Translations under genes and position numbers: made by a program
Source of the DNA: Escherichia coli
Lineage (GTDB): Bacteria; Pseudomonadota; Gammaproteobacteria; Enterobacterales; Enterobacteriaceae
DNA: 64,000 nucleotides
Assembly: GCF_003018255.1 (NCBI RefSeq)
Contig: NZ_CP027440.1
Strand: one strand, 5' to 3'
Part shown: piece after piece, positions 47,989-57,646 of the stretch
How positions within the stretch are numbered: position 1 is the stretch's first letter
Layout: every line of letters begins with the position of its first letter
The notes under the pieces: model-generated
What the model was told of the DNA's origin: nothing
Database searches by the model: none
Seen by the model: only the letters and a program-made list of their open reading frames with translations

Positions 47989-49077
47989 ATGAACGACAGG
48001 GAAAAGCAGATTCTTAAAATTTTACGGCGTAACCCGCTGATTCAACAGAACGAAATTGCGGATATGCTGCAAATCAGCCGTTCGCGCGTTGCGGCGCATA
48101 TTATGGATTTAATGCGCAAAGGCCGGATTAAAGGCAAAGGTTACATTCTCACCGAGCAGGAATACTGCGTAGTGGTGGGGACAATCAATATGGATATTCG
48201 CGGGATGGCGGATATCCGTTACCCGCAAGCGGCTTCTCATCCCGGTACCATTCATTGCTCGGCAGGCGGCGTTGGACGCAATATCGCCCACAATCTGGCG
48301 CTGTTAGGCCGCGACGTCCATTTGCTTTCAGTGATTGGCGATGACTTTTATGGCGAAATGCTCCTGGAAGAAACGCGCCGCGCCGGCGTGAATGTCTCCG
48401 GCTGCGTTCGTTTACATGGCCAAAGCACATCGACGTATCTGGCAATTGCCAATCGAGACGATCAAACCGTGCTGGCGATTAACGATACCCATCTGCTGGA
48501 TCAGTTGACACCGCAACTACTGAACGGGTCGCGCGATTTACTTCGTCATGCGGGCGTGGTACTTGCTGATTGTAACCTGACAGCCGAGGCGCTGGAATGG
48601 GTCTTTACCCTCGCTGATGAAATCCCGGTGTTTGTCGATACCGTTTCAGAATTCAAAGCGGGCAAAATCAAACACTGGCTGGCGCATATTCACACCCTGA
48701 AACCCACTTTACCGGAGCTGGAAATTTTATGGGGACAGGCGATCACCAGCGATGCTGACCGTAATGCCGCAGTGAATGCGTTGCATCAGCAAGGCGTTCA
48801 GCAACTGTTTGTTTATTTGCCCGATGAGTCAGTTTATTGCAGCGAAAAGGATGGAGAGCAATTTTTGCTGACAGCGCCAGCGCATACGACAGTAGACAGT
48901 TTTGGTGCTGACGATGGTTTTATGGCGGGCCTGGTATATAGCTTTCTGGAGGGAAACAATTTCCGTGACAGCGCCCGTTTTGCGATGGCCTGCGCGGCAA
49001 TTTCACGCGCCAGCGGCAGCTTAAACAACCCTACCCTGTCTGCCGATAACGCGCTTTCATTAGTGCCGATGGTGTAA
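47989..49077 (+). CDS. yeiI: PfkB-family sugar/nucleoside kinase with N-terminal winged-helix domain, YeiI
   Basis: 362-aa ORF; N-terminal HTH (ILKILRRNPLIQQNEIADMLQISRSRV) fused to ribokinase-like fold (GGVGRNIA); paralog of psuK. Confidence 0.85.
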   Translation: MNDREKQILKILRRNPLIQQNEIADMLQISRSRVAAHIMDLMRKGRIKGKGYILTEQEYCVVVGTINMDIRGMADIRYPQAASHPGTIHCSAGGVGRNIAHNLALLGRDVHLLSVIGDDFYGEMLLEETRRAGVNVSGCVRLHGQSTSTYLAIANRDDQTVLAINDTHLLDQLTPQLLNGSRDLLRHAGVVLADCNLTAEALEWVFTLADEIPVFVDTVSEFKAGKIKHWLAHIHTLKPTLPELEILWGQAITSDADRNAAVNALHQQGVQQLFVYLPDESVYCSEKDGEQFLLTAPAHTTVDSFGADDGFMAGLVYSFLEGNNFRDSARFAMACAAISRASGSLNNPTLSADNALSLVPMV

Positions 49078-49082
49078 CAATG

Positions 49083-49118
49083 TTGCCGGATTCGACGCTT
49101 GACTACATCTTATCCGGC
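49083..49118. repeat. degenerate REP-like palindrome between yeiI and nupX
   Basis: TTGCCGGAT...ATCCGGCTC inverted repeat. Confidence 0.4.
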
Positions 49119-49132
49119 TCATAACTCGCGCA

Positions 49133-50383
49133 CTACGCTAAGCCAATAAAGAATCCTGCAATGGTTGCACTCATCAGGTTAGAAAGTGTCGCCGCCGCCA
49201 GCGCGCGTAAACCAAGCTGGGCGATTTCCGGTGCACGGTGTGGCGCAACCGCAGAAAACGCCCCCACCACCACCCCGATAGAACCAAAGTTAGCGAAACC
49301 GCACAACGCGAAGGAAATAATCGCCACGGTTTTAGCATCCAGAGTGCCAGCCGTTTGCAGATAGGGTGAGAAATTGAGGTAAGCGACAAATTCATTTATT
49401 GCCAGTTTCTGTCCAATCAAACTCCCGGCAAGATTCGCATCACTCCAGTCAACACCCATTACCCACGCCAGTGGGGCCAGCAGGTAACCTAAAATGGACT
49501 CCAGCGAGGCATGTTCAAAGCCAAACCAGCCGCCAACGCCGCCGATAATACCGTTAATTAACGCAATGATGGCGACAAATGCCATCACTACTGTCGCCAC
49601 ACCTGCGGCGATTTTCAGCCCGGTCATTGCCCCTGTCGCAGCGGCTTCAATAATGCTTTTTGGCGGTGTTTCGGTGAAAGAGAGGTTATTAAAGGAAACC
49701 TGCGAAGATTCTGTTGCCGGGCTTAACAGGCGGGCAAACAAGATCCCGCCGGGGATCGCCATTAACGATGCCGCCAGCAGATATTCCACAGGCACGCCCA
49801 GTGCGGCGTAACCAATCATTGTCGAACCAGCAATCGAGGCCATCCCGCTACAAATCGCTGTAAATAATTCATTGCGATTCAGACGATTGATAAAGGGTTT
49901 GACGATTGCCGGAATTTCGTTTTGCCCGAGGAAAATGGTAGTGACCGCGACGAATGACTCGATCTTGCTGATATTCAATGCTTTCTGGAAGATACCGCCG
50001 AGAATGCGAATTAAGATCCCCATCACACCGATGTAGTAGAGAATACTCACCAGTGCTGTAACGAAGATAATTGCCGGTAATACCCTGAAACCAAAGATAA
50101 ATCCTGCGCCATCAAATAAGGTATCCATTTTTGGTCCGACCAGAGAACCAAAGATAAATGCGCTACCTGCATCGCTGTACGCCATCACTTTATGCACGCC
50201 AAAAGCGACTTTTTCTGCGACCCAACGCCCTGGTGGTAACCAAAGCATAATGCCGCCAATCACGACCTGTAACACTAACGCCGCGCCAACGGTACGCAGG
50301 CTGATCTTCTTCTTGTTTACTGACAGCAAAAACGCAATTGCCAGCAATACCACCATTCCCAGAACACTTCTCATGACATCCAT
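49133..50383 (-). CDS. nupX: NupC-family nucleoside permease NupX
   Basis: 416-aa polytopic ORF; close paralog of the psuT ORF in this window. Confidence 0.9.
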   Translation of the reverse strand: MDVMRSVLGMVVLLAIAFLLSVNKKKISLRTVGAALVLQVVIGGIMLWLPPGRWVAEKVAFGVHKVMAYSDAGSAFIFGSLVGPKMDTLFDGAGFIFGFRVLPAIIFVTALVSILYYIGVMGILIRILGGIFQKALNISKIESFVAVTTIFLGQNEIPAIVKPFINRLNRNELFTAICSGMASIAGSTMIGYAALGVPVEYLLAASLMAIPGGILFARLLSPATESSQVSFNNLSFTETPPKSIIEAAATGAMTGLKIAAGVATVVMAFVAIIALINGIIGGVGGWFGFEHASLESILGYLLAPLAWVMGVDWSDANLAGSLIGQKLAINEFVAYLNFSPYLQTAGTLDAKTVAIISFALCGFANFGSIGVVVGAFSAVAPHRAPEIAQLGLRALAAATLSNLMSATIAGFFIGLA

Positions 50384-50408
50384 AGTTATTATCTCTTCAT
50401 GTCATTTT

Positions 50409-50436
50409 GGGCGACGGCTTTCTGCCCATCAGAAAT
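50409..50436 (-). promoter_or_regulatory. conserved leader hairpin motif upstream of nupX (copy 1)
   Basis: plus-strand GGGCGACGGCTTTCTGCCCATCAGAAAT shared 27 of 28 with the psuT leader; mRNA stem GAUGG/CCGUC. Confidence 0.35.
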
Positions 50437-50482
50437 AGCCGGGCCTGCATCTTGCGATACTGTCCCGGCTTGTTATCAACAC

Positions 50483-51424
50483 TTAATGGGTTTTGATGTA
50501 GCCGCGCACGCACTCTTCGACTAATCCCCAGAACCAGTCGGTATCAATAGTGATGCCGACTTTGGTATTGGCGGGCTTGCCAAGAACGCCCAGCTCGTCG
50601 CAGACCGTACGCCCGTAGCAAGGGCCGCTGTTAACGTCCACTTCGACGTACATCTCCTGGGTTTTAATGCCATCAGGGTTAATCAGATAACCGATGCAGG
50701 TGGCGTCATGCACCGGGCCGCCAGCCAGGCCGTAGTTTTCGAACTGCGTTTTTAGAGTGAAATTCATGATGTCGCTGAACAGCTCTCCGGCGGGGCCGCC
50801 TACCCTTTCCATCCGAGCAATCACGTCCGGGGTGCAAACAGTCTGGTTGGTGAGATCGAGGCCCATCATCACCAACGGAACGCCGGAGGTGAACACCACG
50901 CGTGCGGCTTCCGGGTCAGCAAAGATGTTGAACTCGGCAGATGGGGTGAAGTTGCCAGTACCGTAAGCGCCGCCCATCAGCACAATTTCACGGATTTTCG
51001 GCAGGATCGCGGGTTGCATACGCATTGCCACCGCGATATTTGAAAGTGGGCCAACCGGCACCAGAGTGATATCGCCATCGCTTGCCATCAGGGTATCGAT
51101 GATATATTTCACCGCATGAGTGCTTTCTGCCTGGCGGGTCAGCGGCTCGAATACCGGGCCATCCAGTCCGGTTTCACCGTGAATATTATCGGCAACGATT
51201 TGTTGACGCATAATGGGCTGTGGCATCCCCGCATAAACCGGAACATTAATCTCCAGTTTCTGGCAAACATTCAGGCCATTAATTAATGTTTTATCAAGCG
51301 TCTGATTACCCGCCACAATGGTGATACCTAATAAATCTATTGCCGGATGTTTCGCTGCCATCATTATGGCAATAGCATCATCATGACCCGGATCACAATC
51401 CAGAATAATTTTTCTCTTTTCCAT
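50483..51424 (-). CDS. rihB: pyrimidine-specific ribonucleoside hydrolase RihB
   Basis: 313-aa ORF with IU-nucleoside hydrolase DxDxxxDD motif (DCDPGHDDA). Confidence 0.93.
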
Positions 51425-51592
51425 TGTTTATTTCCTCTGTTTCCAGTTGCGTTATTTTTTCTACAGCAAAGAAAATTCGACCGGGCCGATGATTGAATCT
51501 TAACAACAGCGTAAGTATGCTAAATATGAGAAATCTCATAGCGGATAAACATCGTGAAAGAAATCCACAATAATGACCTTAAGCAGCAATTG

Positions 51593-52252
51593 ATGAGTGA
51601 ATCTGCGTTTAAGGATTGCTTTTCAACGGATGTTTCAGCCGATACGCGGCTGTTTCATTTTTTAGCGCGTGACTACATTGTGCAGGAAGGGCAACAGCCG
51701 TCATGGCTGTTTTATCTGACGCGAGGCCGTGCCAGGCTTTACGCCACGCTTGCTAATGGTCGCGTGTCGCTGATCGATTTCTTTGCCGCTCCCTGTTTTA
51801 TTGGCGAGATTGAGTTAATCGACAAAGACCATGAACCGCGTGCGGTGCAGGCTATTGAAGAGTGTTGGTGCCTTGCGCTCCCTATGAAACATTACCGCCC
51901 GCTGTTATTAAACGACACGCTATTTTTACGAAAACTCTGCGTCACCTTAAGTCATAAAAATTATCGTAATATTGTTTCTTTAACTCAGAATCAATCATTT
52001 CCGTTAGTGAATCGCCTGGCAGCTTTTATATTACTCTCGCAGGAAGGTGATCTTTATCACGAAAAGCATACGCAAGCGGCAGAGTATTTAGGTGTTTCTT
52101 ATCGACATCTTTTATATGTTCTCGCGCAATTCATTCACGACGGTTTATTAATTAAAAGCAAGAAAGGGTATCTCATTAAAAACAGAAAGCAGTTGTCAGG
52201 ACTGGCACTGGAGATGGACCCGGAAAATAAATTCTCAGGGATGATGCAGTAA
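51593..52252 (+). CDS. yeiL: CRP/FNR-family transcriptional regulator YeiL
   Basis: 219-aa ORF from ATG 51593 (MSESAFKD); cNMP-binding-like fold and C-terminal HTH; track GTG 51554 rejected. Confidence 0.85.
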
Positions 52253-52273
52253 AAATTATTTGCAATAGAGCGA

Positions 52274-52313
52274 TTGCCGGATGTGACGCTTAATAAGCGC
52301 GTACATCCGGCAA
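52274..52313. repeat. REP-like palindrome between yeiL and psuT
   Basis: TTGCCGGATGTGACGCTTAATAAGCGCGTACATCCGGCAA. Confidence 0.45.
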
Positions 52314-52319
52314 TGACAC

Positions 52320-53570
52320 TCAAGCTAAACCAATAAAGAACCCGGCAATGGTCGCGCTCATCAGGTTGGAAAGCGTTGCTGCTGCCAGCGCCCGTAAACC
52401 AAGCTGGGCGATTTCCGGTGCGCGTTTTGGCGAAATAGCCGAAAATGCCCCAACGACAACACCGATAGAACCAAAGTTAGCAAAACCACAAAGCGCAAAG
52501 GAGATAATCGCAATGGTTTTCACTTCCAGCGTGCCGCCCGTTTGCAGGTATGGGGAGAAACTCAGGTAAGCGACGAATTCGTTAATCGCCAGTTTCTGCC
52601 CAATCAGGCTACCCGCAAGATTGGCATCACTCCAGTCCACACCCATGATCCACGCCAGCGGTGCCAGCACATAGCCAAAAATACTTTCCAGAGAGGCATT
52701 GGCGAAACCAAACCAGCCGCCAATTCCGCCGATAATGCCGTTGATCAGCGCAATAATTGCGACAAACGCCATTACAACCGTCGCCACACCAGCGGCGATT
52801 TTCAGCCCGGTCATCGCACCGCTCGCCGCCGCTTCGATAAAGCTTTTTGGCGGCGTTTCGCTGAACGACAGATTTTCAAATGTCACCTGCGAAGGCTCGG
52901 TGGCTGGGCTAAGAATACGTGCAAACAAAATACCACCAGGGATCGCCATCAGCGATGCCGCTAACAGGTAGTCAATTGGTACGCCCATTCCGGCATAACC
53001 AATCATCATCGAACCAGCAATGGACGCCATCCCGCTACAAATTGCGGTAAACAACTCGTTGCGATTCATGCGATCGATAAACGGTTTAACGATCGCCGGG
53101 ATCTCATTTTGCCCGAGGAAAATAGTGGTAACCGCAACAAAAGATTCGATTTTGCTGATGTTGAGGGCTTTCTGGAAAATGCTGCCAAGGATGCGAATCA
53201 GCAGCCCCATCACGCCAATGTAGTACAGCAGACTGATGAGCGCAGTGACGAAGATAATCGCCGGAAGTACGCGAAAGGCGAAGATAAAACCCGCACCGTC
53301 AAAGAGGACATCCATTTTCGGCCCGACCAGCGAACCAAAAATGAAGGCGCTACCGGCATCACTGTAAGACATCACTTTATGAACGCCTAATGCCGCCTGT
53401 TCTACCGCCCATTTTCCTGGTGGAAAATAGAGCATGATTCCGCCAATGGCGATTTGTAGCAGCAACGCGGCTCCAACCGTGCGCAAACTGATGCTCTTTT
53501 TATTCACTGACAACAGAAATGCTATTGCCAGTAACACCACCATCCCCACAACACTTCTCATTATATCCAT
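52320..53570 (-). CDS. psuT: NupC-family pseudouridine/nucleoside transporter PsuT (YeiM)
   Basis: 416-aa polytopic ORF; close paralog of nupX. Confidence 0.9.
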   Translation of the reverse strand: MDIMRSVVGMVVLLAIAFLLSVNKKSISLRTVGAALLLQIAIGGIMLYFPPGKWAVEQAALGVHKVMSYSDAGSAFIFGSLVGPKMDVLFDGAGFIFAFRVLPAIIFVTALISLLYYIGVMGLLIRILGSIFQKALNISKIESFVAVTTIFLGQNEIPAIVKPFIDRMNRNELFTAICSGMASIAGSMMIGYAGMGVPIDYLLAASLMAIPGGILFARILSPATEPSQVTFENLSFSETPPKSFIEAAASGAMTGLKIAAGVATVVMAFVAIIALINGIIGGIGGWFGFANASLESIFGYVLAPLAWIMGVDWSDANLAGSLIGQKLAINEFVAYLSFSPYLQTGGTLEVKTIAIISFALCGFANFGSIGVVVGAFSAISPKRAPEIAQLGLRALAAATLSNLMSATIAGFFIGLA

Positions 53571-53636
53571 ATTGATTTTCCCTTCATGCCAGTAAACCCG
53601 GCGTCAGCGCCAGGTTTTGGTATGCTTGATGAGTAC

Positions 53637-53664
53637 GGGCGACGGCTTTCTGCCCGTCAGAAAT
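53637..53664 (-). promoter_or_regulatory. conserved leader hairpin motif upstream of psuT (copy 2), overlapping psuG stop
   Basis: plus-strand GGGCGACGGCTTTCTGCCCGTCAGAAAT; mRNA stem GACGG/CCGUC. Confidence 0.35.
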
Positions 53665-54602
53665 TAACCCGCGAGACGCTGGTATTCTTTGGCTATTTCA
53701 CTCGCCAGGATGGCGTTGTTGAACACCAGCTGGATGTTGGATTTCAGGCTGTCACCGCCGGTCAACTCAGCAACGCGCGCCAGCAGGAATGGCGTACTTT
53801 CTTTACCAATAACACCCTGCGCTTCAGCTTCAGCTACCGCCTGATCGATCGCCGCATTGATAGTGTGTTCCGGCATAGCAAACTGTTCCGGAATCGGGTT
53901 CGCTACCACGAGGCCACCGTTCAGCCCGCTTTGCCATTTCACCGCCATTGCACGGGCAATTTCGCTGGCGCTGTCGAGACGAATGCTCACGTCAAACGGG
54001 CTGGTGCGGCAGAAAAACGCAGGCAGCGCTTTGGTCTGATAGCCAATTAGCGGTACACCGAAAGTTTCTAAATATTCGGTAGTTAAGCCTAAATCGAGAA
54101 TAGATTTCGCCCCGGCACAAACGACGGTGACATTGGTGTGCGCCAGTTCTTGCAAATCGGCAGAAATATCGAAGGTATGTTCCGCCCCGCGATGCACACC
54201 ACCAATTCCCCCGGTGGCAAATACTTTAATTCCGGCAAGCGCCGCAATAATCATCGTTGAAGCAACGGTGGTTGCACCATTTTTTCCGGCGGCAACAACA
54301 AAAGGTAAATCGCGACGACTAACTTTGGTCACGTTATGCCCTTCACGACCCAGCAATTCAATTTCTTCTTTGCTTAAACCCACTTTCATCACGCCGCCAA
54401 TAATGGCGATAGTGGCAGGTACAGCGCCCTGTTTACGAATAGTTTCTTCAACTTCAATTGCGGTCTGGGCATTTTGTGGGAACGGCATCCCGTGAGAAAT
54501 AATGGTCGATTCCAGCGCCACAACCGGTTTTTTGTTTTTTAAAGCGTCCTGCACTTCCGGGGAAATTTGTAATAATTCAGGGGAAATTTTTAATTCAGAC
54601 AT
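53664..54602 (-). CDS. psuG: pseudouridine-5-prime-phosphate glycosidase PsuG (YeiN)
   Basis: 312-aa ORF, IndA/PsuG family; overlaps psuK stop. Confidence 0.92.
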   Translation of the reverse strand: MSELKISPELLQISPEVQDALKNKKPVVALESTIISHGMPFPQNAQTAIEVEETIRKQGAVPATIAIIGGVMKVGLSKEEIELLGREGHNVTKVSRRDLPFVVAAGKNGATTVASTMIIAALAGIKVFATGGIGGVHRGAEHTFDISADLQELAHTNVTVVCAGAKSILDLGLTTEYLETFGVPLIGYQTKALPAFFCRTSPFDVSIRLDSASEIARAMAVKWQSGLNGGLVVANPIPEQFAMPEHTINAAIDQAVAEAEAQGVIGKESTPFLLARVAELTGGDSLKSNIQLVFNNAILASEIAKEYQRLAG

Positions 54603-55531
54603 TCTGCGTTCTCCACTAACGATATAACGTTGGCAATCGATAAATCGGGGTTATTGGTGTATTCACAGGAGAGCGCCATTGACGAACATCCCTGTGCGAA
54701 ACGAACAGATTCGGCAAACGGCATTCCGTCTACCCAACACGAAGCAAGTCCCGCCATCATGGCATCGCCCGCTCCGGTAACATTAATGACATTGGTTTTG
54801 ATCGGCGCAGACCAACCACTTTCACCGCTGATATCACTGTAATAAACGCCGTCGCCGCCCATGCTCAATACCAGTCGGTTCAGGCCATGTTGATGGAACC
54901 AGGCAGCAACTTTTGCCACATCTTCACGCCCTGACAAAGCAATCCCACTCAGGGTTTCCGCTTCAAGGCGGTTTGGCTTGAGAGTGTGGATTTGATTTAG
55001 ACGGTCGCGCACTTTGACACATTTCCACGCGGAAACAGGATCGACAAATACGGGTACGTTGGCGGCATTATCCAGAATCCATGCCAGTGCCTCTTCACTG
55101 ATATTACAGTCCGCGACAATGACCTTTGCCCTCTGAATAAATTCACCGTGCTGTGCGAGATATTCAGCTGTAATAGCGTTGCTAATATTCATGTCATTTA
55201 TAGCAACCAGCATTTCACCGGTATTATCGAGTAATGATAAATAGCTCGACGTATTTTCTCCCGGCACAATCAGGCATTTATCGACATAAACACCAGATTG
55301 ATTGGTTTGCGTTAGCAGCGATTGACCATAAAAATCACTGCCTACGGCGCTCAGTAGCCAGGCTTTATTCCCCAGCAACGCCAGGTTTTGTGCAATATTG
55401 CGCCCTACTCCACCAGGCGTAAACTTTATTTTACCTGGATTTGAATCCGCATAATTTAATGATTCATGTGAATATCCGGCGACATCAATATTCGCCGAAC
55501 CTATAATTACGACATAATCCTTTTCGCGCAT
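54590..55531 (-). CDS. psuK: pseudouridine kinase PsuK (YeiC), PfkB family
   Basis: 313-aa ORF with ribokinase-like motifs (GGVGRNIAQN, GAGDAMMAG). Confidence 0.9.
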   Translation of the reverse strand: MREKDYVVIIGSANIDVAGYSHESLNYADSNPGKIKFTPGGVGRNIAQNLALLGNKAWLLSAVGSDFYGQSLLTQTNQSGVYVDKCLIVPGENTSSYLSLLDNTGEMLVAINDMNISNAITAEYLAQHGEFIQRAKVIVADCNISEEALAWILDNAANVPVFVDPVSAWKCVKVRDRLNQIHTLKPNRLEAETLSGIALSGREDVAKVAAWFHQHGLNRLVLSMGGDGVYYSDISGESGWSAPIKTNVINVTGAGDAMMAGLASCWVDGMPFAESVRFAQGCSSMALSCEYTNNPDLSIANVISLVENAECLN

Positions 55532-55598
55532 AGCACGTCCTCTGGTAAAAAATTACCAACCCTGTCAATCCACAAGAATATAGATACTGCAAAGACGG

Positions 55599-55634
55599 TT
55601 TAAACATGTGTTCATATTTAAACATGTGCTCATA
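55599..55634. promoter_or_regulatory. tandem 18-bp direct repeat upstream of psuK (candidate regulator-binding site)
   Basis: TTTAAACATGTGTTCATA immediately followed by TTTAAACATGTGCTCATA, then an inverted partial copy (GCATGTTTTAC); 70-100 bp upstream of psuK ATG. Confidence 0.35.
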
Positions 55635-55771
55635 GTATGCATGTTTTACGTAAAGTAAATTACCGCCAGAGATGCAAAATGGGCAGATTTGAGCAGGCTC
55701 ACAAAACGCGATTAAATGCCTGAATTATAAAAACGGGGAATTTGTGACGGAATGCACAGAACAGGAACACT

Positions 55772-55797
55772 AAAAAAGGGCAGAAATTAATCTGCCC
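55772..55797 (-). terminator. rho-independent terminator about 160 nt downstream of fruA
   Basis: minus-strand hairpin GGGCAG-N8-CUGCCC followed by U6 run. Confidence 0.6.
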
Positions 55798-55916
55798 TTG
55801 AGGAAATAACCTTAGTGTTTGATGAAAGTTTCAGGTTTCCACTAAAAGATAAAACCATTTAAATTCATAAAATTACATTCACAAACCGGTCATTCTCTTT
55901 GCGCGCATCAAATGTT

Positions 55917-55941
55917 CCAGGGCAGGAAATTTCTGCCCTGG
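55917..55941 (-). terminator. hairpin immediately downstream of fruA stop (weak terminator or RNA stability element)
   Basis: 9-bp stem CCAGGGCAG/CTGCCCTGG with 7-nt loop; only a short U tract follows on the minus strand. Confidence 0.4.
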
Positions 55942-55954
55942 AACACACCTTTTA

Positions 55955-57646
55955 TTACGCTGCTTTTGCTACTGCGTCCACTTCCGGACGTTTCAGGAAG
56001 GCATAGGCCAGACCCGCCACCAGCGTACCGGCAATAATGGCTACCAGGTAACCCAGTACCGGCGTAATAGCGCCAGGGATCAGCAGAACAAACAGACCAC
56101 CGTGCGGTGCCATCAGTTTCGCACCAATCGCCATTGAGATTGCGCCAGTCAGCGCCCCACCAACGATACAACACGGCAGCACACGCATCGGATCACGAGC
56201 AGCAAACGGAATTGCACCTTCCGAAATAAAGCACAGACCAAGAACCAGAGCGGCTTTGCCACCTTCCTGCTGCGCTTTGTCGAATTTGCGACGCGCCACC
56301 ATTGTTGCCAGACCCATTGCCAGCGGTGGCACCATACCTGCCGCCATAATCGCCGCCATCGGGCCATAGGTTTGAGTACTCAGCAGACCCACACCGAATG
56401 CGTACGCTGCTTTATTTACCGGACCGCCCATGTCAGTACACATCATGCCACCGAGGATCGCCCCCAGCAGAACCGCATTCGCAGTCCCCATGGTCTGCAG
56501 CCAGTGAGTCAACCCTTCGAGAATGCCAGCAACCGGTTTACCGATCAGGTAGATCATCGCCAGACCGACCACCAGACTGGAAATTAGCGGAATGATCAGG
56601 ATCGGTTTCAGCGCCTCCATACTCTGTGGCAGTTTCAGTTGCGTACTGATTAACTTCGCAATGTAACCAGCCAGGAAGCCCGCAATAATACCCCCAATGA
56701 AGCCAGAACCGGTGCTGACCGCCAGCATACCCCCAATCAGACCCGGCGTGAGACCCGGACGATCGGCAATGGAGAAGGCAATGTAACCTGCCAGTACCGG
56801 CACCATCAGCGCAAAGGCTGAACCACCACCAATCTGCATCAGCGCCGCTGCCAACGTACCCGGCTCTTTAAACGCTTCGATACCAAAAGCAAAAGAAAGC
56901 GCGATACACAGACCACCTGCAACGACCATCGGCAGCATGTAAGAGACGCCCGTCAGCAAGTGACGGTAAGCGCCTGCACCCTCTTTCTTACCTTCAGTGG
57001 TCGCTGTTTGAGCTTTGCCCGCCGGTTCATACGGCGTTGCTTCAGCAACCGCTTTATCCAGTTCCTGCGCGGTTTTCTTCAGCGCCAGACCGGTAGAGGT
57101 GCGATACATCGGTTTACCAGCAAATTTCGCCAGATCCACTTCGATATCTGCCGCCACAATCACCAGATCCGCTGCGGCTACTTCTTCAGGGGTGATCGCA
57201 TTACCCGCGCCAACAGAACCACGGGTTTCAACTTTCACCCACCAGCCACGTTTTTTCGCTTCGGTTTCAATGGCTTCAGCCGCCATAAATGTGTGTGCTA
57301 CGCCAGTCGGGCAAGCTGTCACCGCAACTACGCGTTTCGGACCGCTGGTGGCAACTGGTGCTGTCGCAGCGACCGGTGCAGTGTAAGGTTTCGCATGGCC
57401 TTTGGCTTCACTCAGGAACAGCTCAGGGTGCGCAACTGCCCGGGAAATATCGCCCAGCCAGACATTTTTACCGTTCAGCGCGCTGTCGTTCGGGATGGAA
57501 TCACCGAGAACAATCGCCATTTCAGCGTCGTTCGGATTGTCGATGATTTCCAGTTTTGCTTTTCGCGCCGCCGCGCCCAGCAGGGTCTTCGCCATATAGG
57601 CGCGTGCCTGACCGAGATTAGCGTCAATAATCAGCAGCGTTTTCAT
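55955..57646 (-). CDS. fruA: PTS fructose-specific EIIB-prime-BC component FruA
   Basis: 563-aa ORF with duplicated IIB domain (VTACPTGVAHT) and IIC membrane domain. Confidence 0.95.
   Translation of the reverse strand: MKTLLIIDANLGQARAYMAKTLLGAAARKAKLEIIDNPNDAEMAIVLGDSIPNDSALNGKNVWLGDISRAVAHPELFLSEAKGHAKPYTAPVAATAPVATSGPKRVVAVTACPTGVAHTFMAAEAIETEAKKRGWWVKVETRGSVGAGNAITPEEVAAADLVIVAADIEVDLAKFAGKPMYRTSTGLALKKTAQELDKAVAEATPYEPAGKAQTATTEGKKEGAGAYRHLLTGVSYMLPMVVAGGLCIALSFAFGIEAFKEPGTLAAALMQIGGGSAFALMVPVLAGYIAFSIADRPGLTPGLIGGMLAVSTGSGFIGGIIAGFLAGYIAKLISTQLKLPQSMEALKPILIIPLISSLVVGLAMIYLIGKPVAGILEGLTHWLQTMGTANAVLLGAILGGMMCTDMGGPVNKAAYAFGVGLLSTQTYGPMAAIMAAGMVPPLAMGLATMVARRKFDKAQQEGGKAALVLGLCFISEGAIPFAARDPMRVLPCCIVGGALTGAISMAIGAKLMAPHGGLFVLLIPGAITPVLGYLVAIIAGTLVAGLAYAFLKRPEVDAVAKAA

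Follow-up and report, generated by a model that had tools for sequence, protein, structure and literature searches.

A conserved stem-loop in the untranslated leaders of the nucleoside transporter genes nupX and psuT

Why should two spacers that follow unrelated enzyme genes carry almost the same 28 nucleotides (nt) ahead of a transporter gene? The question is raised by a stretch of 64,000 nt of Escherichia coli DNA (contig NZ_CP027440.1 of assembly GCF_003018255.1; hereafter the window), in which the operons rihB-nupX and psuK-psuG-psuT each contain a distal transporter gene of the CNT family. The initial annotation of this stretch had noticed the repeat from the sequence alone and proposed a cis-acting RNA element. 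Our analysis suggests that this is indeed the best reading, given that the repeat contains a 19-nt stem-loop (stem-loop 1, SL1) which is conserved across Enterobacterales, stands before both paralogues and covaries in its base pairs, although the helix is not the one proposed initially. The genes concerned, on whose layout the K-12 annotation of the region agrees, and the two copies of the repeat are as follows.

49133-50383, minus strand: nupX, CNT-family nucleoside transporter, downstream of the first copy
50483-51424, minus strand: rihB
51554-52252, plus strand: yeiL, between the two operons
52320-53570, minus strand: psuT, CNT-family putative pseudouridine transporter, downstream of the second copy
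53664-54602, minus strand: psuG
54590-55531, minus strand: psuK
50409-50436, minus strand: 28-mer, nupX copy
53637-53664, minus strand: 28-mer, psuT copy, whose first base is the final base of the psuG stop codon

Neither the rihB-nupX spacer (50384-50482) nor the psuG-psuT spacer (53571-53663) contains a feature in the K-12 or RefSeq annotation. Read in the sense of the mRNA, the 28-mer common to both is AUUUCUGA[U/C]GGGCAGAAAGCCGUCGCCC, and its copies agree at 27 of 28 positions, as had been claimed, with the U/C as the sole difference. A search of the window with a 27-nt version of the repeat, allowing up to three mismatches, gave exactly two matches, compared to none in 100 shuffles, and blastn of the 56-nt leader against 5424 E. 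coli genomes gave a median of two and a maximum of three places per genome. The shared sequence upstream of nupX and psuT is confirmed. Its limits are abrupt at both ends, as matches fall to 7 of 20 positions on the upstream side and 5 of 20 on the downstream side, and similarity returns, after a gap of 41 nt in the nupX leader, at the Shine-Dalgarno region CAUGAAG(A/G)G; comparison of the leaders thereby bears out the earlier observation of similar ribosome-binding regions behind the two copies. The coding sequences of nupX and psuT share 79% nucleotide and 88% amino-acid identity, with 46% identity at fourfold-degenerate sites (35–61% per 156-nt block, and no block stands out). Because the fourfold sites are just 46% identical, the duplication must be old, and a match at 27 of 28 positions lies far above neutral expectation, arguing that the likeness is not neutral.

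Searching 100,044 species genomes for NupX/PsuT peptide patterns yielded 59 loci, 48 of them from Enterobacterales and covering about 20 genera. These 48 loci form two syntenic classes, psuK-psuG-psuT (29 loci) and yeiL/rihB-nupX (19 loci, including Pantoea, Izhakiella, Hafnia and Ewingella). In a neighbour-joining tree the psuT clade is nested inside a nupX grade, suggesting that nupX accompanied by rihB and yeiL is the ancestral arrangement; psuT would be a later, yet still family-level, duplicate of nupX. With psuT as an old branch within nupX, the similarity of the leaders does not reflect a recent duplication of uniformly high identity, the trivial explanation that the initial annotation had considered.

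Nearly all of the 48 loci possess a 19-nt core, GGGCAG-NNN-GC-N-GUCGCCC, upstream of the transporter gene, beginning 44-87 nt 5' of its AUG. The exact pattern occurs in 34 of these 48 loci and at two places in K-12, and Hafnia and Pluralibacter have diverged versions only. Averaged over 804 pairs of diverged sequences, identity was 95% at the 15 fixed core positions, in comparison to 46% at fourfold-degenerate sites, 41% at the four variable loop positions, 32% in the 5' flank and 45% in the 3' flank. Conservation therefore extends well beyond Escherichia, and the difference between the core (95%) and the silent sites (46%) indicates that the core is under strong, base-specific purifying selection in both paralogues. 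Outside this family, the genome scan displayed a gap in NupX identity between about 79% and 43%, a protein search for distant NupX relatives gave best 120 matches that were all at least 80% identical, and a covariance-model search found no SL1 in the distant CNT loci L047-L059 (best E = 0.42).

The same covariance model, run over the window and the 59 loci (415 kb), matched transporter leaders only, with E values from 2e-7 to 6e-2, including two instances that had not been used in training, the nupX copy of Phytobacter and the leader of a psuT deletion in locus L001. The latter belongs to Escherichia sp. MOD1-EC7003, in which psuT is a pseudogene with a large internal deletion and the leader is intact, with the SL1 loop AAG. 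No other copy of SL1 was detected by the model in the 64-kb window (next best E = 8.4). A membership in REP/BIME (repetitive extragenic palindromic sequences and the mosaic elements built from them) or in another dispersed repeat was ruled out by the occurrence of about two copies per genome. The Rfam search that the initial annotation had recommended returned no matching family: a permissive E-value search of 48500-56000 against Rfam 15 gave no match at the leaders bar isrJ with 18.9 bits (gathering threshold 37, E = 7), and seven diverse loci gave zero matches at their leaders. In metagenomes the bare pattern GGGCAGNNNGCNGTCGCCC occurred at 120 loci, of which two (L107 and L121) are true nupX/psuT leaders, the remaining matches being chance occurrences in high-GC DNA (mean GC 64%) without new contexts; the bare core pattern is without specificity there. 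In the psuK-fruA spacer of the window, two terminator-like palindromes (55776-55799, minus strand; 55913-55945, plus strand) are built on GGGCAG/CUGCCC, the hexamer of the SL1 5' arm, which is probably a coincidence.

The two copies of SL1 in the window, which the covariance model matched with 36.0 bits (E 3e-6) for nupX and 36.2 bits (E 2.6e-6) for psuT, are given here in mRNA sense.

50408-50428 (core 50409-50427), minus strand: SL1, nupX copy, U-GGGC-A-G-AAAGCCGU-C-GCCC-A, with a U-A closing pair
53635-53657 (core 53637-53655), minus strand: SL1, psuT copy, AC-GGGC-A-G-AAAGCCGU-C-GCCC-GU, with C-G and A-U closing pairs

Base pairs were counted in an ungapped alignment of 46 sequences (A4), the figures for the initially proposed stem referring to 44 distinct sequences. 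The GGGC/GCCC helix, together with two closing pairs and the pair of G18, was paired in 90.9% of cells; none of 500 shuffles matched SL1 in the percentage paired or in the covariation score, and slid controls were far lower. The cross-species comparison that had been suggested thus revealed covariation, located in this helix and its closing pairs: pair 12-32 occurs as C-G (28 sequences), U-A (11) and U-G (1), the closing pairs being summarised as C-G 29 and U-A 13, pair 11-33 as A-U (11) and G-C (11), and pair 15-29 shows one double change from G-C to U-A in Enterobacter sichuanensis. RNAalifold, run without a supplied structure, returned the same 5-bp stem with an 11-nt loop. The conserved stem has a mean energy of -7.3 kcal/mol in Escherichia and -7.5 kcal/mol elsewhere, and is the minimum-energy fold of both window copies with their natural flanks (for nupX in a 43-nt context). 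Between the window copies, the U/C at column 12 is matched by A/G at column 32, one base 3' of the 28-mer, so that the two differences together amount to a compensatory change between U-A and C-G in the conserved stem. The initial annotation had read the U/C as a G-U versus a G-C pair, which is true of the stem it proposed; in the conserved helix it is one half of this compensatory change.

Alignment A8, consisting of A4 plus Hafnia, the Phytobacter nupX copy and the psuT-pseudogene leader, defined the inner part of the hairpin and showed that pairing can extend beyond the four G-C pairs. At pair 18-26, 46 sequences have G-U and one has A-U, and positions 17 and 27 form mostly an A-C mismatch, replaced by A-U in Hafnia, Izhakiella and Phytobacter. 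In Hafnia the result is a perfect 10-bp hairpin, AAUAGGCAAC-AUCUU-GUUGCCUAUU, with a further compensatory change of pair 13-31 from G-C to A-U. An alternative register, in which A17 is bulged and G18 pairs with C27 (G-C in 39 sequences, G-U in five), is equally compatible; A17 is a conserved irregularity of the helix in both registers, either unpaired or in the A-C mismatch, and G18 always pairs. Of the remaining loop bases, G22, C23, G25 and U26 are at least 90% conserved, and positions 19-21 and 24 vary freely; the variable loop is also where Buttiauxella has a deletion of 2 nt. SL1 therefore unites a helix irregularity, conserved loop bases and a covarying stem, the combination by which an RNA operator hairpin recognised by a protein can be judged, and fixed unpaired bases within a covarying stem are the signature of a hairpin that is specifically recognised, not merely stable.

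By comparison, the 5-bp stem GAYGG/CCGUC around an 8-nt loop, which the initial annotation had proposed, can form in both window copies but is not conserved elsewhere. Folded in isolation, this hairpin shows no unusual stability (z = -0.8 and -1.3). Pairing holds in only 65.5% of its cells, no better than in shuffles, and 31 of 44 sequences break two of the five pairs, with the mean energy going from -6.4 kcal/mol in Escherichia to -0.2 kcal/mol elsewhere. The noted stem is the wrong helix, its choice having been misled by an extra layer of identity in Escherichia that is taken up below.

SL1 belongs to a larger leader, which was analysed in an alignment of 33 full leaders (A5) and in a consensus fold of 18 psuT-type leaders. 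Four modules were distinguished, namely SL1, an A/C-rich linker, a second stem-loop (SL2) and an unpaired Shine-Dalgarno module, CUGGCAUGAAGGGAAAUCAUU-AUG. In the window they are located as follows.

53618-53634, minus strand: linker of psuT, A/C-rich and predicted to be single-stranded, consensus AUAUCA(A/G)ACAUACCAAAA, deleted in the E. coli nupX leader
53594-53617, minus strand: SL2 of psuT, AAACCUGGCG-CUGA-CGCCGGGUUU, from the consensus fold
53571-53593, minus strand: Shine-Dalgarno module of psuT, CUGGCAUGAAGGGAAAAUCAAU, homologous to nupX 50384-50404 and unpaired in the consensus fold
50384-50407, minus strand: remainder of the nupX leader from SL1 to the AUG, AAAAUGACAUGAAGAGAUAAUAACU, with the Shine-Dalgarno sequence AAGAG at 50393-50397

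SL2 (family form AAACCUGGCG-N4-CGCCGGGUUU) was folded by RNAalifold with nine pairs. In 14 of 18 sequences one of these is U-G, which would turn into a C-A mismatch on the opposite strand, indicating that it is the sense strand that matters. It is present in the psuT leaders and in one nupX leader, having been lost from 15 of the 16 nupX leaders in A5. SL2 and parts of the linker are deleted in nupX lineages with differing boundaries, the largest deletion being that of the window nupX copy, and SL1 is kept in all leaders of the alignment from which they are missing. This retention argues that the role of SL1 is independent of any terminator formed by SL2. Moreover, SL1 is the 5'-most homologous module in both operons despite the unrelated genes upstream, rihB and psuG, indicating that the leader belongs to the transporter gene and was duplicated along with it. 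As to SL2 itself, the terminator scan left it unflagged, with just three U after its stem; in psuT-class loci, flanked by an A-tract and UUU, it resembles a weak and possibly bidirectional terminator between psuG and psuT. Two Dcm sites (CCTGG) also lie within SL2, and a repeat of its 5' arm follows a short way downstream (CCUGGCG / CCUGGCA).

We favour the reading that SL1 works in cis as an RNA stem-loop and that a trans-acting protein or RNase recognises it and thereby controls the distal transporter cistron, and regard the chance of its being correct as about even. SL1 would be the first module of an old untranslated leader of NupX/PsuT genes, copied with the gene when psuT arose from nupX, and would act in cis on the polycistronic psuK-psuG-psuT and rihB-nupX mRNAs. 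No sigma-70-like promoter was found within 130 nt upstream of SL1 in 33 loci, which favours co-transcription with rihB or psuG, as far as a consensus scan can indicate. Sequence-specific recognition of SL1 by an RNA-binding protein or endoribonuclease may then determine, separately from the enzyme genes upstream, how stable the transporter cistron is or how well it is translated; in the most concrete version, SL1 would mark a processing point and leave a hairpin-protected 5' end. Any particular mechanistic version of this kind, such as processing with a protective 5' hairpin, has a considerably smaller probability than the reading as a whole. Since loop bases are fixed, the role of a pure stability hairpin appears to be insufficient.

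SL1 appears to be uncatalogued and is best filed under a familiar kind, the cis-acting mRNA leader hairpin; the literature on nupX and psuT covers transport or pseudouridine production and not regulation, and no earlier description of SL1 was found in it. NupX transports uridine and cytidine, weakly, and for PsuT no transport of xanthosine, uridine, cytidine or gemcitabine was detected, its substrate not having been demonstrated (PMC11241209). For two such poorly understood transporters of undescribed regulation, a 19-nt element offers a concrete and easily mutated handle on the control of the distal gene. If a specific partner exists, the best-studied bacterium would turn out to possess a new small RNA-protein or RNA-ligand module; should SL1 be a mere processing or stability hairpin, the case would be an ordinary one, though unusually well conserved. 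The element is in either event small and limited to one transporter subfamily, with its function inferred.

Comparison with known systems is informative. Like phage lambda boxB (GCCCU-GAAAA-AGGGC) and the MS2 coat-protein operator (loop AUUA), SL1 has a short GC-closed stem with a few fixed loop bases amid variable ones and occupies an untranslated segment immediately before the cistron under control; its helix is interrupted by an unpaired A, a feature that the MS2 operator has too. Unlike them, it occurs in chromosomal catabolic operons at two copies per genome, its binding protein is putative and there is no resemblance in sequence. Stabilising hairpins such as the malE-malF REP and the ompA 5' stem-loop share with SL1 a stable hairpin, and SL1 likewise lies between cistrons whose products, cytoplasmic enzymes and a membrane transporter, the cell probably requires in unequal amounts. 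However, such hairpins are constrained in structure and not in loop sequence, whereas loop bases of SL1 are fixed; REP elements number hundreds of copies against two per genome; and SL1 travels with the downstream gene rather than the upstream one. The RfaH ops element, of consensus GGCGGTAGNNTG, was also compared by inspection: the family consensus AGCGGTCGCCCG matches nine of 12 ops positions, including GCGGT, but lacks A7 and the pause base T11, and the equivalent of ops G4 varies freely. As ops elements are found in 5' leaders of long envelope or virulence operons and SL1 between genes of short catabolic operons, this resemblance was treated as chance.

Several points weigh against a dedicated RNA-level control through SL1. 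The covariation is contributed mainly by the two closing pairs, together with a few lineage-specific changes, the four G-C pairs vary so little that they are uninformative in this respect, and counts of wobbles and mismatches in SL1 do not discriminate which strand matters. A dedicated SL1-binding factor is hypothetical. A separate internal psuT promoter is possible, in view of a peak inside psuG, between psuT and psuK, that was reported by genomic SELEX (systematic evolution of ligands by exponential enrichment) with the RpoS holoenzyme (PMC5493296); by our own conversion from older genome coordinates, which makes the position an estimate, it lies ~200-300 nt upstream of the psuG stop (window ~53860-53960), where the consensus scan gave no sigma-70-like site. 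The Term-seq tables contain no psuG or psuT entry and, near nupX, only an antisense 3' end close to the nupX 3' end (PMC7815308). Hybrids of small RNAs (sRNAs) recovered by Hfq-CLASH (crosslinking, ligation and sequencing of hybrids), namely CpxQ-psuT, CpxQ-nupX and CyaR-nupX, all lie in coding regions and not in SL1 (PMC7213987). They map to G-rich coding segments, psuT codons ~7-23 (~53500-53550, minus strand) and nupX nt ~1100 (~49260-49285, minus strand), which suggests sRNA control of these inner-membrane transporter mRNAs that is unrelated to SL1. A RIL-seq dataset (from a method in which interacting RNAs are ligated and then sequenced) from nitrogen starvation likewise has no entry for the leaders (PMC10954441), and they are covered by no CLIP entry either.

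Among the competing explanations, the one that survives best, though we consider it unlikely, is that the element acts as double-stranded DNA, as an operator or roadblock for a transcription factor, for instance the CRP/FNR-type YeiL, that would tune read-through into the transporter gene. It gains from the position of yeiL, which adjoins rihB-nupX in 19 of 19 nupX-class loci, and from the inverted repeat GGGC-N11-GCCC in the core, and contacts between protein and DNA would explain the fixed 'loop' bases as readily as contacts with RNA. However, symmetry is limited to the outer 4 bp and does not extend to the conserved bases further in, and the flanks covary as pairs (C-G/U-A and A-U/G-C), which is not usual for operators. 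The promoter regions of psuK, rihB and yeiL in the window contain no further copy of the core even with three mismatches allowed, and in E. coli nupX the end of the site is separated from the AUG by 26 nt, too short a distance for an activator site. To our knowledge, the core is also unlike half-sites of the CRP/FNR type, which was counted against this explanation.

The extra identity between the two Escherichia copies has to be considered separately. Of the 28 positions, 15 are fixed core and 13 are others, and 12 of these 13 are identical between the window paralogues, for which the probability is 1e-5 to 7e-4 under the cross-genus identities of 32-46%. The non-core states common to both paralogues are the flank AUUUCUGAU (the Escherichia flank state being UUUCUGA), the loop AAA (AAG in one copy) and C24, the last of which was found in eight of eight Escherichia copies and in one of 41 others. 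The claim that the identity of the leaders reflects a conserved cis element accordingly stands for the deeply conserved core, but not for these flank, loop and C24 identities, which are specific to Escherichia. The pattern points to either a short gene-conversion patch or a lineage-specific co-selection for the same alternative conformers. It also illustrates how, in a single genome, the likeness of paralogues may combine deep constraint with local homogenisation and suggest a wrong helix.

These states build two alternative helices that compete with the conserved stem in Escherichia only: UUUCUG/CAGAAA at -4.3 kcal/mol and GAYGG/CCGUC at -8.5 (psuT) and -6.7 kcal/mol (nupX), in comparison to -9.4 and -8.3 kcal/mol for the conserved stem. 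The former was rejected as a conserved helix, pairing in only 45% of cells across genera, and a pseudoknot of the two was rejected by inspection, as its connecting loops would be 0-1 nt. A rather speculative proposal, which we regard as decidedly improbable, is that SL1 serves as the operator of an undescribed post-transcriptional control of NupX/PsuT by a pyrimidine-derived ligand or a dedicated protein, with a three-state switch between UUUCUG/CAGAAA, GAYGG/CCGUC and GGGC/GCCC in the Escherichia paralogues. Slightly less probable again is that the functional structure is the GAYGG/CCGUC hairpin with the loop GCAGAAAG, or an Escherichia switch between it and the conserved stem. The energies of the two stems in E. 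coli are indeed close, a third helix is available in UUUCUG/CAGAAA, and all 12 shared non-core positions lie in a helix or beside one (column 4). The GAYGG/CCGUC hairpin nevertheless cannot form outside Escherichia, where its mean energy was given above, and hence provides no account of the deep conservation, and a gene-conversion patch would explain the shared Escherichia states equally.

That SL1 is a compact ligand-sensing mini-riboswitch for a nucleoside or base is very unlikely. The leaders do precede pyrimidine-nucleoside transporters, NupX carrying uridine and cytidine (PMC11241209), the unpaired bases are strongly fixed and no protein partner is known; the guanidine-II (mini-ykkC) and preQ1-I riboswitches also resemble SL1 in size and in their leader position before a transporter gene. 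Yet SL1 is a single short hairpin without a multi-helix pocket, matches no Rfam family, has no partner hairpin with a conserved loop and is linked neither to the Shine-Dalgarno sequence nor to a terminator. A classical riboswitch was rejected on similar grounds, as the Shine-Dalgarno sequence is unpaired in the 18 psuT-type leaders and the E. coli nupX leader, consisting of SL1 and 24 nt, has no expression platform.

Intrinsic terminators and attenuators share with SL1 a GC-rich stem-loop in a leader, and the neighbouring SL2 resembles a weak terminator. Of the roles initially proposed, a processing site and a binding site for a protein or sRNA are still candidates, but an attenuator is unlikely for SL1, which lacks a U-tract and in E. 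coli nupX stands in a leader without a terminator; indeed, the terminator scan did not flag SL1, and no lineage has a U-tract after its stem, the 3' sequence being GUACUCAUC in psuT, AAAAUGAC in nupX and GCGAAUAUC or AUAACG in other genera. The converse, that SL1 is an intrinsic terminator on the opposite strand which stops antisense transcripts through the transporter gene, is more improbable than a riboswitch. It is suggested by AUAAAAAC just 5' of SL1 in five loci (L014, L017, L028, L046 and L020), where the opposite strand reads a hairpin followed by GUUUUUAU, and by the transporter gene being always convergent with its downstream gene. But the A-tract is missing in most loci, including those of E. 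coli, Citrobacter, Klebsiella and Pantoea, a terminator for convergent genes is expected at the other end of the transporter gene, and the fixed loop bases are left unexplained.

Least probable of all is a leftover of the duplication without function, whose copies gene conversion between the paralogues has kept similar, for although the Escherichia states common to both copies show some homogenisation or parallel change, conversion within genomes cannot give 95% core identity over about 20 genera, single-paralogue genomes keep the core (Pantoea and Ewingella, with Hafnia having only a diverged, fully paired version), and the coding regions, at the blockwise fourfold identities given above, bear no sign of conversion.

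A few further candidates were rejected. A leader peptide or upstream open reading frame (uORF) is contradicted by an AUG that is found over SL1 solely in leaders with a U-A closing pair, those of psuT having ACG, GCG or CCG instead, and by variable positions (19-21 and 24) that are not third-codon positions. Pairing of SL1 with the transporter coding region would rely on the only recurrent 6-mer, GUCGCC/GGUGGU (codons 10-12), that needs three G-U pairs, and none was found at 7-8 nt. Resemblances to sigma-54 or RpoE sites, to a hammerhead-like motif (CUGAUG...GAAA...GUC) and to a tRNA arm were dismissed by inspection, the bases being unconserved outside Escherichia or the spacing wrong.

Other features of the two spacers lie outside the conserved element. 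Directly after the rihB stop codon there is a species-specific hairpin.

50438-50469, minus strand: imperfect GC-rich hairpin, GCCGGGACAGUAUCGCAAGAUGCAGGCCCGGC, with the inner part GUAUC-GCAA-GAUGC, followed by UAUUUCU

Each nupX-class locus has a different GC hairpin at this post-rihB position, and that of Pluralibacter (L036) is a textbook terminator, GCGGGCCUCAGCGCCCGC-AUUUUUU, raising the question of how nupX is transcribed there. On the psuT side, a 154-codon ORF on the plus strand (53586-54050) starts in the psuT leader and crosses SL1 and the 3' part of psuG in antisense orientation; it has no counterpart at the nupX copy and probably represents a psuG shadow ORF. In the E. coli nupX leader, an AUG arises from the U-A closing pair of SL1 and begins a uORF of 10 codons (50397-50429, minus strand; AUGGGCAGAAAGCCGUCGCCCAAAAUGACAUGA), whose stop overlaps the Shine-Dalgarno region; this uORF has no preceding Shine-Dalgarno sequence and is not conserved in psuT leaders. 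The sequence UGACAU (50399-50404, minus strand) can pair with AUGUCA in nupX codons 2-3 (50374-50379), enclosing the Shine-Dalgarno sequence and the AUG in the loop; the resulting hairpin is part of the minimum-energy fold and specific to the E. coli nupX copy. Finally, the E. coli nupX leader is polymorphic, as strain SCPM-O-B-8794 (L003, 2433-2500) keeps 12 extra nt, AUAACGGGAUCAGACC, between SL1 and the Shine-Dalgarno region, a segment that resembles Salmonella, where the window and most E. coli have AAAA.

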